Source: Octopus vulgaris
Lineage: Eukaryota
Assembly: GCA_951406725.2 (NCBI GenBank)
Contig: OX597834.1
Span: forward strand, 36,084,001 to 36,148,000
Reading direction: 5' to 3'
DNA: 64,000 bases
The translations under genes were made by a program, and so were the position numbers. A model generated the notes under the pieces. That model was not told the origin of the DNA. It was given only the letters and a program-made list of their open reading frames with translations, and did no database searches. Shown here in pieces: positions 8,990 through 61,710 of the stretch (positions within the stretch are counted from its first letter, which is position 1; the number at the start of each line of letters is the position of its first letter).

Positions 8990-10460
8990 ATATGCGTGTG
9001 AGAGTGTGTGTGCGTGTAAGAATATATTTGTGTAAGAATGTGTGAAAGAAGAAGTGTGTGTATCTGCGTGTGTGTGTGCGTGCGCGGGTATGTATGAGTG
9101 CGTGTATGTATGTATGCATGTATGTATGTGTATGTATGTATGTATGTATGTATGTATGTATGTATGTATGTATGTATGTATGTATGAGTGCGTGTATGTA
9201 TGTATGTATGTATGTATGTATGTATGTATGTATGTATGTATGAGTGCGTGTATGTATGTATGTATGTATGCATGTATGTATGTATGTATGTATGTATGTA
9301 TGTATGTATGTATGTATGTATGAGTGCGTGTATGTATGTGTGTATGTATGTATGTATGTATGTATGTATGTATGTATGTATGTATGTATGTATGTATGTA
9401 TGTACGTATGAGTGCGTGTATGTATGTGTGTATGTATGTATGTATGTATGTATGAGTGCGTGTATGTATGTATGTATGTATGTGCGTTTATATATGTATT
9501 TTTTATTAATATTTAGCAGAAGCAACGGAGTGACTCAAAGTCCGAGAGTTTCGTGCGTTGGCATTTATCAAACCTGTGTGTGTGTAAGAATATATTTGTG
9601 TGTGAATGTGTGAAAAAGAGAGAGGGAGAGTGTGTGTATGTGTGTGCGTGTAAGAATATGTTTCTGTATGAATGTAAGAGAGAGTGTGTGTGTGTGTGTG
9701 TGTGTGCGTGCGCGTGTAACAATATATGTGTGTGTGTGTGAGAGTGTGTGTGCGTGTATGTTTGTGTATGAATGTGTGAAAAAGAGAGAGAGTGTGTGTG
9801 TGTGTGCATGCGCGTATAACAATATATGTGTGTGTGTGTGTGTGTGAATGTGCGTGTGAGAGTGTGTGTGCGTGCGCGGGTATGTATGAGTGCGTGTATG
9901 TATGTATGTATGTATGTATGGATGTATGTATGTGCGTTTATATGTATGTATGTATGAGTGCGTGTATGTATGTATGCGTGTATGTATGTATGTATGTGTG
10001 TATGTATGTATGAGTGCGTGTATGTATGTATGTGTGTATGTATGTATGTATGTATGAGTGCGTGTATGTATGTATGTATGTGTGTATGTGTACCAACGTA
10101 ACAGAGACGTATAATGCAACAGCCGTTGTTGACGTTCACACACGCGCACACAAACATACATAAATTTATGCGTGTATAGAAAACACTTTGTGACGCTCAA
10201 ACGATTTGAACTTGCACTCCTGATATTTTCATCGAGCCCTGTCTGTCTGTCAGCGCGCGCGCGCGTGTGTGTGTATGTATGTATGTATGTATGTATGTAT
10301 GTATGTATGTATGTATGTATGTATGTATGTATGTATGTATGTATGTATGTATGTATGTATGTATGTATGTATGTATGTATTATGTATGTATGTGTGTGTG
10401 TGTGTGTGTGTGTGTGTGTGTGTGTGTGTGTGTGTGTGTGTGTGTGTGTGTGTGTGTGTG
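8990..10460. repeat. Composite (TATG)n/(TG)n microsatellite with internal block duplications
   Basis: Long GTAT runs punctuated by GAGTGCGT. The block GTGCGTGCGCGGGTATG occurs at about 9077 and 9868. Confidence 0.9.
9527..9574 (-). ncRNA. Hammerhead-like motif, U3-A8 core variant, GUC triplet
   Basis: GGT TTGATAA ATGC-caac-GCAC GAAA CTC..GAG TC ACT. The 10.1-11.1 pair is mismatched here but G-C in the relative at 32467. Confidence 0.55.
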
Positions 10461-11219
10461 CGGAGGGCTGGGGGATGCACACTCACTTTTTACAATCTTA
10501 ATTCTCAACGAAGTACAGATTAAAAAACCAACATATACTTGTGTATGTATATACAACGTTAAGTATGCTCACCGAATATATACGGGATGTATACAAAAAT
10601 ACAAGAAACTAGTACACATACACACACACACATACACACACACATATATACATATACACATGTACGTTGTAAGTGTTGTGTGTGTGTATGTGTGAGTTAA
10701 TGTCAGGTGTGCCGCTGTCTTTGCAAACATCCATCACAATTTTGTTGATGTAAATATTTGAGTGCGTGTATATGCGGTTACCTTTTACATGTAGACATAC
10801 ACACGCATACAGGTGTGTATATATATACACGCATACGCTTGTGTGTGACCGTAAACATACTTACATACATACACACATGCATACATAAACATACATATTA
10901 TACATACATTCATAAACACACACACATACGTAGAGTTACAATTATAGACAAACAATTATAAATTAAGATTAGAGCCTCATCAATTATCAGTTTCTTTATA
11001 AACCTTTTATACAGAATCTCATGGCAAACCGAGTGGATATAGATATACATATATATATTGATTTACAGCTGAAGAGAGAAATGTTTTCACGAATGTCAAC
11101 ATAATTTATTTGTTTGTTGCAGTATGTGTTTCGTATCTGACAATTGGCAGGTGTTGGCGTTTATGAGAAATCTGGGTGATGCACTTTTAGGCATAAATGG
11201 AATTTTAATGAATAGATTT

Positions 11220-11660
11220 ATAGGCAGACAGACAGATTGATAGATAGATAGATAGATAGATAGATAGATAGATAGAGTGGCAAACAAGACGGACAGATAG
11301 ATAGACAGACAGGCGGGAAAATGGATAGATAGATGGGTAGATAAATAGATGGATAGATAGATGGATAGATAGGTACATAGGTAGGTAGATAGGTAGATAG
11401 ATAGATAGACAGACAGATGGATAGATAGATAGATAAATAGATAGATGGATAGATAGGGAGAAATATAGATAGATAGATAAATAGATAGATAGACAGACAG
11501 ATAGATATATAGATATATATAGATAGATAGATAGATAGATAGATAGATAGATAGATAGACAGACAGATGGATGGATAAACAGACAGATAGATAGATAGAT
11601 AGATAGATAGATAGATAGATAGATAGATAGATAGATAGATAGATTGATAGATTGATAGAT
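11220..11660. repeat. (GATA)n/(GACA)n microsatellite
   Basis: Direct observation. Confidence 0.95.
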
Positions 11661-14600
11661 CTGCATTTTGTCTGTGTAAACATTGAGTATATAAATATTG
11701 ATGACCTTGTGAGTGCGTATATACATATGTTTATGCACATATACACACGTATATATACATGTATGCATGTGAGTGTGTATGTGTGTATATATATATATAT
11801 ACACGCGCGCGCGCATATTTATATATATTTATATACGCGGTCACACGCACGCACTCACACATATATAGATGGATGGTGCGTGTATGTTGAGCCAACGTGC
11901 GTATTTATGTATAGTCGTGTGTGTACACTTATATATAAATATACATTCCATTCTCAACTGAATGTACAAAGTATACATCACACACACACACACATATATA
12001 TATATACGTATGTATATCTGTGTATATGTATTTGTGTGTGTGTGTATGTATATATATATAATTGGGTCATCTAGCATCCGAATGCAGATGCGACAGCAAC
12101 TAAATGTATGTATATAACGTGTGTGTATATGTGTGTGTGGTGTGCGTGTGTATGTGTGTATATATATATATATATATATATATATATTTATATATGTATT
12201 TATATATGTATATACATGCATGAAAAGACCTGTTCAGAGAAAATATATAAATAGCAGAAATATATATATATATATATATATATATATATATATGTGAAGC
12301 AATTGTTATTATTATCATTATTATTTTTATGTTTCACTTTACTAACCAGATATTTGACAGATTTGGAGGAGTTAAGCCTGCTTATCCCTGTTAAAATAAA
12401 TGACTTGTGTTCGTGCAAAACATACACACTGGTTTGTTGATGTAGGTGCTTAGCGGTTAGTTCCCACAGTTCAAATGCTGGATAACTCCTCTCTTCTCTC
12501 TTGACTGTCTGTCTATCTGTGTGAGTGTGTATGTATGTATAAATATATACATATATATGTATATATATATATATATATATATATATATATATATATATAT
12601 ATATATATATATATATATGTGTGTGTGTGTGTGTGTGTGTGTGTGTATATATATATATACACACACACACATATACACATATATATATATATGTATATGT
12701 GTGTGTGCATGTATGTGTGTGTATATATATACATACATACATGCATGTCATTTATTACATATATTATACATGTAGAGAGAGAGAGAGGTAAGTTTCACAA
12801 CACCCATCTCATTGTTTTGTAACTGGAAGATATATATATATACACACAAACACACACGTGTATACACGGAGCTAGCTACCAAGATAGATAGATAGATACT
12901 CATATATATATATATATATATATATATATATGCACACACACACAAACACGTGCACGCACATACACACAGCACACACACACACACACAAATATGTAGTGTA
13001 GAAAAATTTTGGGATGGTCACTGGTGGAATGTCTTTCAGCATAGGCCCGCTTGTTTGGAGACAATGGGTGTGTGTATATGTGTGTGTGTGTGTGTGTGCA
13101 CACCTATAAAATATAAAGCATTTGTACGGGTGTGTATAAGTGCAGGTGTCAGTATACCCATTAAATTAGTCCAACTGTAGCATCGTTAGATTACATTATT
13201 AATATCATCATTTAATTACGATAAATTATTAATGATAACGATTATTCAAATTAATATCCCATTTACGTTTGCATGTGCGTGTGTGAACGTATCTATATGT
13301 ATGTATGTATGAATGTCTACCCATGTCTGTCTTTTATCCTGTTTCACTCCTTTTAGCCATTGGACGGCGGGCCATGCTGGGGCACCGTGAAGAAGGATTT
13401 TAGTCCCCCCCCCCCCAGCACTCTGCTCTGAGAGTGCATGTGTTATATATACATACATACATTCATACATAATATATATATATATATATATATATACATA
13501 TATATATGTATGTATGTATGTATGTGTGTATATATATATATATATATATATATATGTATGTATGTATGTATGTATGTATGTATGTAAAATTTCAGAAAAT
13601 GTTCGTTGTGCAATGCTGTTTAGCCCAAGGCATACCATAAGGTAAGCGAACCAAAGATGAAGGAAAACTCTTCTAATCTTATATTTCACATCATTTTTTC
13701 ACAACCGGGTATAGTGTACCTAAGACTACATAATCTAATGTAACTGTCATTTTTCTCGCTTTTTTTTCTATTTTCTTTTTTTTTATGATTTTGTAGGAGG
13801 ACGATGGAGGAAACCTGGCTGCCATTTCTACCATGCCGAGTGAACAGGTAGAGGGTTTCCCCCGAGATGGGTGTCATCGTGTTTTCCACCGGGTCTGCTT
13901 TAAACGAGAAGATCCACCGACCAAACCAAAAGCGCTACATCTATGACCACCATCCCATATTTCTGAGCATCCAGAAATAAATTAGCATTCTTATCTTCTT
14001 AAGATAACGGTGTCATTTAAAAGAAATTCGGCTGCTACTTCTAACCGGTAGAACGATCGCTTTAAGGATCCGTCATTCATTTGTACTTGAAGTGCAATTG
14101 CAAGGAACTGTGTAATGCGCTGTAGAATATTAATTATAGTAATAAATATGAAAAATATAGGTGAGCATTCTTTCGGTTTAGGATCACAAAGTGAAAGTGG
14201 AAATATTGCCCTCTTCGCTAATGTCCAGACGGACATTGTCGAAAAAGCACCCTCCTCCCCACCTCATTATTATTATTATTATTATTATTATTATTATTAT
14301 TATTATTATTATTATTATTATTATTATTATTATTTTGTTGGGTCGGTGAATAATAATTTCTTTGGGTTTCCTGTTTTCAACAACGGAGATAACGATTTTT
14401 TTTTTTGGTGCCAAATAAGTAAATAAATAAATGAAAATAAGTAAATAAAAAAAATTATACAGCTTTTTCAAAATGTTTGATTTCCCTCCATTCTTTCTTT
14501 GTGTATATATGTATATATATATATATATATATATATACATTATTTCTAAATTAAAATGTTTTTCTGTATAGTTTAAAATAATATATATATATATATATAT

Positions 14601-61268: not shown

Positions 61269-61630
61269 TTTATTACCTCCGCCTTCGCTAAGGCGGAGGT
61301 ATTGTTTTCAGTCATACTTGTTTGTCCGTGGACACAATATCTCAAGAACCACTGGATGGATTCGGATGAAACTTTCAAGGATGTTTGTCCTCGTGACTAC
61401 CACGAACTGATCCGATACCAGCCACAGATTCTGGATTATTTTCCCTGTTTTTTTTTTTTTTTTACTTAATTTTTGAGGGCGGTCGGTTTCATTTTTAGTA
61501 CTCTCGTTTGTGAGAGCAGTCAAGTTTATTTCAGATATTCTCATTTTAAAAATCATCTCTGGCCAATCGTTGAGAGGACGTTGGTGTCCCCTTGGCGGAG
61601 ATTTGCGCCCTCTGAGTGCTTTTGTTATTT
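61269..61630 (+). mobile_element. Helentron-associated (DINE-1/HINE-like) non-autonomous element
   Basis: 5' TTATTACCTCCGCC with a local palindrome, 3' subterminal CTTGGCGGAG, stem-loop GCGC..GTGC and T-rich ends. Confidence 0.75.
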
Positions 61631-61637
61631 ATATTTT

Positions 61638-61710
61638 CCCATATAAAATTTTCGTTGCTTTTGCAACCTTGTCAATGGATGATGAAGAGCTTTGCTCGAA
61701 ACGTTAAATC
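61638..61710. ncRNA. Two back-to-back divergent hammerhead-like motifs
   Basis: Minus 61638-61679: TCCA TTGACAA G GTTGC-aaaa-GCAAC GAAA ATTTTA TA TGGG (U3-A8). Plus 61679-61710: ATGATGA A GAGC-ttt-GCTC GAAA CG TT (C3 and stem I lost). Confidence 0.55.

Follow-up and report, generated by a model that had tools for sequence, protein, structure and literature searches.

Natural hammerhead motifs in which U3-A8 replaces the canonical C3-G8 pair have already been published (Perreault 2011, PMC3088659), also from Penelope-like elements (PLEs), for which Cervera & De la Peña (2014, PMC4209133) describe ~1,300 U3-A8 matches in Schistosoma mansoni and poor in vitro cleavage by the minimal PLE hammerheads. 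Kalweit et al. (2013, PMC3884650) treat the 3-8 pair as a feature of the catalytically active conformation and mention, as data not shown, that G3-C8 performed better with G17 than with C17. Cleavage is recovered in part by the engineered exchange C3G/G8C, also in the PLE hammerhead of Anolis Poseidon (Frangieh et al. 2024, PMC11167929, citing Martick & Scott 2006), and such hammerheads are also covered in a review (PMC8495972); since the laboratory swap is already partly active, the chemistry of the exchange is not new. The same PLE study describes cleavage only with protein present, hammerhead mutants whose insertion in vitro was unaffected, making cleavage dispensable there, and no RNA-seq ends at the hammerhead site (PMC11167929). 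Naiad PLEs amplify although they have no hammerhead (Craig et al. 2021, PMC8557442), and small PLE variants that cleave as dimers were reported by Lünse et al. (2017), as described in a review (PMC6765202). Our search of the open literature, with the Lünse 2017 set and various supplements outside the comparison, found no report of a natural G3-C8 hammerhead; nor did we find one there of any octopus hammerhead.

The window analysed here comprises 64,000 nucleotides of the Octopus vulgaris genome (GCA_951406725.2, contig OX597834.1, positions 36,084,001 to 36,148,000), for which an initial annotation had proposed four hammerhead cores with positions 3 and 8 exchanged together. All four were recovered (N3 at 9571 and 61675 on the minus strand, 26754 and 53153 on the plus strand), the earlier coordinates marking motif ends, and each keeps U4-G5-A6, A9 and GAAA as had been described. 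Judged from sequence, they appear to be type I hammerhead motifs, each lying at the 3' end of one of four repeat families (A to D, in window order), in which the swapped 3/8 pair is a family trait.

An autonomous Penelope-like element with G3-C8

The family B motif (26747..26797, plus strand; core GTGAACA at 26754-26760) is an intact minimal type I hammerhead with G3-C8. Its 7-bp helix I pairs 26747-26753 with 26791-26797; a G bulge (26761) precedes a 5-bp helix II (26762-26780), and GAA (26781-26783) is followed by the palindrome AATATT (26784-26789) and a predicted cut after U17 at 26790. It belongs to a 5'-truncated PLE 3' end with a (TA)n tail (26747..26972, plus strand), with 93% identity to the corresponding end of a copy that bears an ORF. 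Among 119 family copies (11 unscorable), G-C was found in 106 of 108 scored. Genome-wide, an exact pattern gave 6,129 G3-C8 matches (control, 0), and the same context with both positions changed gave 16 matches, 0 of them C3-G8. In a protein-selected sample of 30 B endonuclease loci, a hammerhead lay downstream at 26, and all 26 read G3-C8. Alternative letters at positions 26754 and 26759 all stayed below 3% in four runs, and frequent changes in the helices preserve pairing (at 26777, G·U becomes G-C; at 26793, U-A becomes U·G). We considered a fourth, A3-U8 family, seen in 6 of the 16 doubly changed B copies, and rejected it: these copies sit on differing subfamily backgrounds, and independent double transitions at 1.5-4% per site predict 1.4-9.8 of them.

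The family B ORF is single and encodes 1,025 aa with a YVDD reverse transcriptase (RT) motif, a CX3CXXC linker and, at its C-terminal end, a GIY-YIG domain (Pfam, E 1.8e-5). Pfam searches of the PLE ORFs returned GIY-YIG and no RT family, the RT call for family B being based on YVDD and on homologs labelled reverse transcriptase; for three window ORFs, Pfam returned nothing. About 100 endonuclease copies at at least 93% identity were present among the 150 matches listed, and an inverted 5'-truncated partner copy was also found. Family B is a young autonomous PLE, and the element is probably still mobile. Its RT-Cys linker-GIY-YIG order in a single ORF resembles that of C-terminal EN+ PLEs of the Neptune/Nematis type, with their CX2-5CxxC linker, as described in PMC8557442, and inverted 5'-truncated copies, (TA)n targets and a hammerhead near the 3' end are further likenesses. 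The comparison of B and its relatives X and D with Neptune, Nematis and Hydra was one of features, outside the reference RT phylogeny. A non-LTR retrozyme consists of non-coding tandem repeats with one hammerhead per unit; certain B loci form short tandem arrays with units of 170-260 bp, but the copy in the window stands alone and family B has an autonomous ORF.

Three families with U3-A8

The family C motif (53145..53189, plus strand) is likewise intact, with core TTGAAAA at 53153-53159, a 4-bp helix II (53160-53172), the palindrome ACCGGT (53176-53181), A17 at 53182 and a bulged helix I of 3+4 bp, within a PLE 3' end fragment (52908..53244, plus strand). Other copies carry the end of a GIY-YIG endonuclease ~670-750 bp upstream (3 independent loci), and 37/37 scored copies read U-A (39 copies, 2 unscorable). 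A rule that N17 avoids pairing with N3 was dropped, family C being a counterexample (U3 with A17).

Family D lies on the minus strand (61638..61679), with the 5' arm of helix I at 61679-61676, core TTGACAA at 61675-61669, a G bulge at 61668, a 5-bp helix II (61667-61654) and the palindrome AATT (61650-61647). The window copy has 4 extra bases after U17, adjoining the cleavage site, and is therefore probably inactive. It stands back-to-back with fragments of a canonical C3-G8 family, F17 (61678..61956), whose own N3 was lost at the junction. U-A was counted in 50/52 scored D copies and in 17/20 of the sister family D2 (78 copies together, 6 unscorable), and RT or EN pieces were found upstream of D at 3 independent places.

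The family A motif (9529..9574, minus strand) has core TTGATAA at 9571-9565, helix II at 9564-9553, a 4-bp hairpin helix III (9549-9533), C17 at 9532 and a 3-bp helix I; with a hairpin helix III, it is not a minimal hammerhead. The window copy is an 84-bp 5'-truncated repeat (9491-9573) flanked by microsatellites, with an A10.1·C11.1 mismatch in helix II and most of helix I lost by the truncation. U-A was read in 32 of 33 scored copies (56 copies, 23 unscorable), and a core-independent sample, retrieved with an upstream-only query, gave U3-A8 in 18/20 scorable copies. Protein links to PLEs are present for families B, C and D; family A, with one weak ORF match, is likely a PLE by its structure, showing inverted truncated duplications and microsatellite targets. 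A C3/A8 box at 32467-32473 (plus strand), which the initial annotation had singled out as a possible counterexample, begins where the halves of an inverted family A duplication (32404..32631) join. It is a lone junction copy, and was rejected as a refuting case, so that the reading of the family is unaffected.

Family consensuses with tabulated 3/8 pairs, as the initial annotation had proposed, thus gave Watson-Crick exchanges fixed within each of the four families. Column counts show G12, A13, A14, U4, G5, A6 and a non-G N17 retained throughout (C in A, U in B and D, A in C, in keeping with the NUH cleavage triplet), with U16.1 of the A15.1-U16.1 pair given by the descriptor; the literal C3/G8 of the CUGANGA consensus is absent from all four, this being where they vary from a class that admits compensated exchanges (PMC3088659, section 8). 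Helices I, II and III surround the core, helix I being open, in the window copies of B and C and in family-type copies of A and D, whose window copies are damaged while the families are intact. From these data, a 3-8 tertiary contact would be expected to form in each family.

These motifs resemble the minimal PLE hammerheads, as presented in PMC4209133, in type I topology, short helix I and G10.1-C11.1, in the palindromic helix III of B, C and D, in the extra base between 9 and 10.1 (B and D), and in occurring mostly as solitary truncated copies and inverted pairs. Unlike them, family C has A10.1-U11.1 and no bulge, and family A a hairpin helix III; in Fig. S3 of that paper, as read from its text, 0/56 representative rows, none of them cephalopod, start with GUGA, as family B does with its G3. 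Judged by title and by review PMC6765202, the small variants of Lünse et al. (2017) belong to the same dimer-forming class.

Searches with positions 3 and 8 left free

A strict hammerhead descriptor with positions 3 and 8 left free gave 4 matches in the window: B, C and two internal controls with canonical C3-G8 on the minus strand, namely a minimal hammerhead of another repeat family (6503..6548; N3 6543, N17 6508) and one with an 8-nt palindromic helix III (41307..41352; N3 41348, N17 41311). Damage to the window copies of A and D kept both from matching. We then considered 1.0 Mb of stretches picked without regard to hammerhead content, using a descriptor that required helix I, helix II and a palindromic helix III. 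This gave 17 matches, 16 of them Watson-Crick at 3-8 (9 C-G, 5 G-C, 2 U-A) and 1 G/G, whereas reversing the sequence gave 0 and 20 shuffles together gave 10 (0.5 per shuffle), 2 of these 10 being Watson-Crick. Swapped cores made up 22/61 family copies in this megabase, bearing out the prediction that a CUGANGA-only search would miss such families. Non-canonical families that recur number six (A, B, C, D, D2 and E), and every one of them is Watson-Crick at 3-8; no recurrent multi-locus family with full hammerhead helices shows a non-pairing combination; the sole C/A pair of matches comes from one locus with a 3-bp helix II. A looser descriptor without helices I and III was rejected for this census, as it catches unrelated repeats with any 3/8 combination, and one permitting a hairpin helix III gave 2-9 control matches per megabase at a score of at least 10.

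Narrow Rfam scans at gathering threshold returned no hammerhead (presumably clan CL00010) at B or C, nor at the canonical control at 41348, and are therefore uninformative for B and C. Microsatellite matches to miRNA models dominated a whole-window Rfam scan (150 of 321 matches listed).

Three 3-8 pairs within one clade

The initial annotation had placed the four exchanges in unrelated stem contexts. For B and D this needs revision: in both, A9 is followed by the G bulge, helix II reads GUYGC/GCRAC, the palindrome is of the AAUU type and N17 is U, and their proteins group in a single clade. Their exchanges nevertheless stand as separate changes, because a C3-G8 family, X, is placed between them in a quick tree built from search hits alone, with the D row 30% filled: (B,(X,(D2,D))), SH-aLRT 100/99/99. 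The 3-8 states are G-C in B, C-G in X and U-A in D2 and D, with C-G in the nearest scorable outgroup, so that three different pairs occur within one small clade of octopus PLEs. Other core positions and the helices are intact across proteins that share only 49-71% identity. The natural variants of PMC3088659 show the same 3-8 covariation, with U3-A8 as the only exchange named in its section 8, whereas U-A, G-C and C-G are found here within one retrotransposon clade of one genome.

The active sister family X carries A9C in 10/10 copies fetched beside an X ORF, and 2 other X-type copies retain A9. In a metagenome scan of 69 loci, of which 10 were inspected and only 4-5 had a readable hammerhead, one relative read by eye as U3-A8 with C9. 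The clade therefore tolerates an apparently uncompensated core change. In its proteins, DKS stands in place of the typical DKG and, as read by eye, RT motifs A and B' are separated by a long insertion.

Discussion

We consider it probable that the four motifs are type I hammerheads and lie at the 3' ends of their repeat families (three with ties to PLE proteins, the fourth likely a PLE), each family having a swapped 3-8 pairing in nearly all copies, and that master elements have been under selection to keep a fold that would cut the transcript. Tandem or inverted PLE copies would be transcribed; in B, C and D two hammerheads would pair through their palindromes, and in A the hairpin helix III would form. 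As in all hammerheads, the 3-8 pair would place nucleotide 8's 2'-OH in position, and cleavage of the RNA after N17 would be slow and probably assisted by the protein of the element. The fragments of 60-340 bp scattered over the genome, those of the window included, would be 5'-truncated insertion products decaying neutrally, with selection acting only on transposing copies. The earlier proposal of selection rather than decay thus stands in part: the 3/8 changes are family-fixed and Watson-Crick, at the same time as the window copies of A and D have decayed and X has fixed A9C.

That a relaxed descriptor picked up these motifs by chance, the genome being AT-rich and repetitive, is hardly credible. 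The missing Rfam hits at B and C and the control matches of the hairpin-permitting descriptor would fit that idea, but Rfam misses a canonical control as well, the palindromic descriptor far exceeds its shuffles, and the motifs occupy the 3' region of PLE ORFs, the known site of PLE hammerheads, with published minimal-hammerhead traits, so that this explanation is largely refuted. Nor do we find it at all likely that the ribozymes are dead or dispensable passengers of master elements that drifted at positions 3 and 8, with a coincidental pairing amplified by copying. Copies of a family merely mirror their master and are non-independent evidence; U and A are the commonest bases here, which makes U3/A8 the likeliest outcome of drift; A3-U8 double changes arise neutrally in B copies; and Naiad PLEs are described as amplifying without hammerheads (PMC8557442). 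Against this stand the G3-C8 pair, which in an AT-rich genome takes two transversions toward G+C, the lack of any recurrent multi-locus full-helix family with non-pairing 3/8, and the otherwise intact cores and helices across such diverged proteins. A crude chance estimate for Watson-Crick pairing, counted as five events, is ~0.24^5 = 9e-4, four of the families having been chosen by the initial annotation.

A stronger candidate, though still unlikely in our view, is that the elements retain the fold as a structural signal (for example, a landmark near the 3' end at which the PLE RT binds or primes), with cutting weak or incidental and the 3-8 pair retained for the fold and not for rate. The fixed A9C of an active family agrees with this, as do metagenome relatives in which, by eye, the 15.1-16.1 pair changes and is still Watson-Crick. 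Dimer helices are very weak for B and D (-0.2 and +2.2 kcal/mol; C, -8.3), and the lowest-energy folds contain an N3-N17 pair for B (G·U) and for C (U-A) that competes with the 3-8 pair. The protein-dependent cleavage, dispensable for insertion in vitro (PMC11167929), and the poor cleavage of minimal PLE hammerheads (PMC4209133) point the same way in those accounts. At the same time, all four families retain G12, A13, A14, U4, G5, A6 and an N17 other than G, and the 3-8 pair is known from the catalytically active conformation, as presented in PMC3884650.

Family B has the same pair as the engineered C3G/G8C hammerheads of PMC11167929, which are laboratory mutants, whereas B is natural and amplified; it has U17, unlike the G17 and C17 compared in the G3-C8 constructs mentioned in PMC3884650. 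More tentatively, it is possible that, in this octopus PLE clade, the hammerhead core has cycled between three different Watson-Crick pairs at 3-8, with an A9C change in addition, that the G3-C8 member, present in >6,000 copies, represents the first functional G3-C8 hammerhead from nature to be fixed in an autonomous retrotransposon that is active, and that the clade may use a remodelled, protein-assisted core. Natural 3-8 covariation, already known for U-A, is hereby extended to G-C in a young animal retrotransposon of high abundance, and descriptors limited to C3-G8 overlook about a third of hammerhead-family copies in the sampled megabase. Close PLE relatives with G-C, C-G, C-G plus C9 and U-A cores make it testable whether PLE hammerheads have to cleave or need only fold; if the proposed history is true, the clade would be a natural allelic series for probing the purpose of PLE ribozymes.

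Swapped 3-8 pairs in the window and in their repeat families

The initial annotation claimed four hammerhead motifs whose tertiary pair 3-8 is other than C3-G8, and these swapped cores are indeed present, with U3-A8 at 9571 (minus strand, family A), 53153 (plus, C) and 61675 (minus, D), and G3-C8 at 26754 (plus, B). The DNA is that of an animal and rich in microsatellites. A descriptor left free at positions 3, 7 and 8 matched the window four times, at B, at C and at two motifs with the canonical C3-G8; the A copy fails it because A10.1·C11.1 is mismatched and helix I is truncated, and the D copy because of four additional bases beside the cleavage site.

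Tabulating positions 3 and 8 per family from genome copies, the check proposed with that claim, showed the swapped Watson-Crick pair to be dominant in all four families. Initial searches of the genome (2.8 Gb, 227 contigs) gave 30 loci per family, upstream-only and protein queries supplied further loci, and copies were located by an anchor 3' of position 9. U3-A8 was present in 32/33 scored copies of family A (56 distinct copies, of which 23 were truncated or could not be aligned) and 37/37 of family C (39 copies, 2 dropped), and G3-C8 in 106/108 of family B (119 copies, 11 dropped). Family D and its sister D2 were tallied together (78 copies, 6 dropped): D carries U3-A8 in 50/52, its single C-G copy being ambiguous and bearing an insertion, while D2 has U3-A8 in 17/20, U·G in 2 and C-G in 1. 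D2-like copies with C3-G8 (L170, minus, near index 6072) or U3·G8 (L293 and L294, one duplicated locus) are possible traces of a path from C-G through U·G to U-A, all being single copies only.

Most tallied loci came from core-containing queries, which biases the counts toward the query; three samples avoid this bias. Sampling by the B endonuclease protein placed a hammerhead within reach at 26/30 loci, with G3-C8 in 26/26, and 20 of 25 loci sampled by A upstream DNA were scorable, 18 of them U3-A8. Genome-wide exact patterns in the B context, covering exact G3-C8 and double 3/8 changes only, returned 6,129 G3-C8 matches and 16 with both positions changed, C3-G8 in 0/16. Across four contig-level runs, which carried four organism labels, no other letter reached at least 3% at 26754 or 26759 and 19 other positions varied, which is weak support, as both positions are close to the beginning of the examined stretch.

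Chance background

An unselected sample (100 stretches of 10 kb chosen regardless of content, 16 of which flank the window) gave 17 matches to a palindromic-helix-III descriptor (9 C-G, 5 G-C, 2 U-A, 1 G/G), compared with none when the sequence was reversed and 10 over 20 shuffles. With hairpin helix III allowed, the background was 2–9 versus 25 real matches (1.064 Mb, score ≥10), and all four non-pairing real matches were of this hairpin type. A homology search of the megabase with 16 reference motifs recovered 61 copies, of which 22 belong to swapped-core families. Throughout the 1.94 Mb examined, every non-canonical family that recurs (A, B, C, D, D2 and E, the last being two singles grouped by eye) is Watson-Crick at 3-8; a single locus holds a pair of C/A matches, with a helix II of 3 bp. 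Five independent Watson-Crick events at 0.24 each would arise by chance with a probability of ~9e-4, a crude figure since four families were pre-selected. Further U3-A8 families or singles with a perfect palindromic helix III were seen at L018, L276, L010 and L128, so that U3-A8 and C3-G8 are roughly equally common at family level in the genome examined.

Carrier elements and order of the swaps

Tblastn with 16 queries derived from Penelope-like elements (PLEs) matched the window only once, with a translated 3' flank of family C, and revealed no PLE coding sequence there. In the wider genome, an inverted 5'-truncated partner often accompanies the B element and ~100 of 150 endonuclease copies among the matches listed share 93% or more identity with the query, which marks B as a young autonomous PLE. 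Its 3' ends can form short tandem arrays of 170–260 bp units split by (TA)n (L035:1050-2200; L039; L059), resembling non-LTR retrozymes. Family C has a GIY-YIG end ~670–750 bp upstream in three independent loci, related RT or EN pieces lie upstream of D, and D2 is 3' of a 665-aa ORF; family A shows PLE-type inverted truncations, with one weak match only as its ORF link.

At 61621-61956 the D fragment abuts a fragment of the canonical C3-G8 family F17, and by eye an F17-like piece at ~26600 just precedes B (26600-26972); such abutment of different hammerhead-bearing families is expected from shared microsatellite targeting. ORF remnants at 56643-57374 (minus), 55324-55764 (minus) and 35212-35646 (plus) resemble, by eye, part of a DNA transposase and the ends of two LINE RTs, and had no Pfam match.

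Proteins of B, D2 and D share 49–71% pairwise identity, and a quick tree of 42 rows (D row only 30% filled) grouped them with X, a third active PLE family, as (B,(X,(D2,D))) with SH-aLRT 100/99/99. The core pair is C3-G8 in X and in the nearest scorable outgroup; among more distant metagenome elements, two have U3-A8 and one C3-G8. The simplest reading would be an ancestral C-G that changed once to G-C, in B, and once to U-A, in D/D2, with additional origins of U-A outside D/D2. The four stem contexts had been described as unrelated; given their common clade this does not hold for B and D, although on that reading their swaps are still separate.

Family X, a very young PLE, has intact 1,312-aa ORFs and forms ~4.6-kb tandem arrays (L357, 3' of ORF 1477-5412, minus; L358-L360; L458-L463). 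Its core is C3-G8, but the conserved A9 is replaced by C in 10/10 ORF-adjacent copies fetched; A9 is retained in two further X-type copies (L186, L243). One metagenome relative (L374:2462-2560, plus) combines, by eye, U3-A8 with C9, which suggests that A9C recurs in the B/X/D clade next to a G bulge. Another (L373:4898-5000, plus) has C3-G8 in its core, and by eye its palindromic helix III holds U15.1-A16.1 instead of A-U. In a complete PLE on a metagenome contig, each of the terminal repeats around a 1,096-aa ORF bears a U3-A8 hammerhead (L375:22 and 3432, plus), and a hammerhead-like remnant (L379:2211-2420, plus) has a 6-bp helix I, G15.1-C16.1 within the palindrome and almost no helix II.

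Possible function

The octopus motifs resemble the published minimal PLE hammerhead in their palindromic helix III and bulge after A9, a type whose cleavage is slow and dimer-dependent (PMC4209133). In the active fold, C3 and G8 form a Watson-Crick pair (PMC3884650), and the double change C3G/G8C rescues part of the cleavage of a PLE hammerhead (PMC11167929; PMC8495972). By this analogy it is fairly likely that PLE transcripts are cut slowly, probably with protein assistance, and that selection acts on masters, the transposing copies. Against cutting stand the fixed A9C of X, the barely stable palindrome duplexes of B and D, the ability of N3 to pair with N17 (the nucleotide 5' of the predicted cut) in B and C, and the finding that PLE insertion in vitro did not need cleavage (PMC11167929). 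Hammerhead helices have energies of −10.5 versus an MFE of −11.9 kcal/mol in B, and −3.7 versus −6.1 kcal/mol in C. A structural, non-cutting role of the fold is unlikely, and drift at positions 3/8 is very improbable.

Natural U3-A8 has been published (PMC3088659, section 8), including ~1,300 PLE-linked matches in Schistosoma (PMC4209133). For natural G3-C8 we found no report in the open literature, whose unseen supplements may contain cases; there was none in keyword passages of PMC6155905, PMC6765202, PMC10085705, PMC13725137, PMC7229834 and PMC8557442, nor in part 1 of 5 of bioRxiv 10.64898/2026.07.22.740005, and a keyword search of the main text of the octopus repeat paper (PMC13282606) did not return the word 'ribozyme'. 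Three quarters of the finding is already known. The 3-8 covariation in PLE hammerheads is real and family-fixed, the G3-C8 family B is probably a new natural variant, and family X with its A9C core may be the more telling case.
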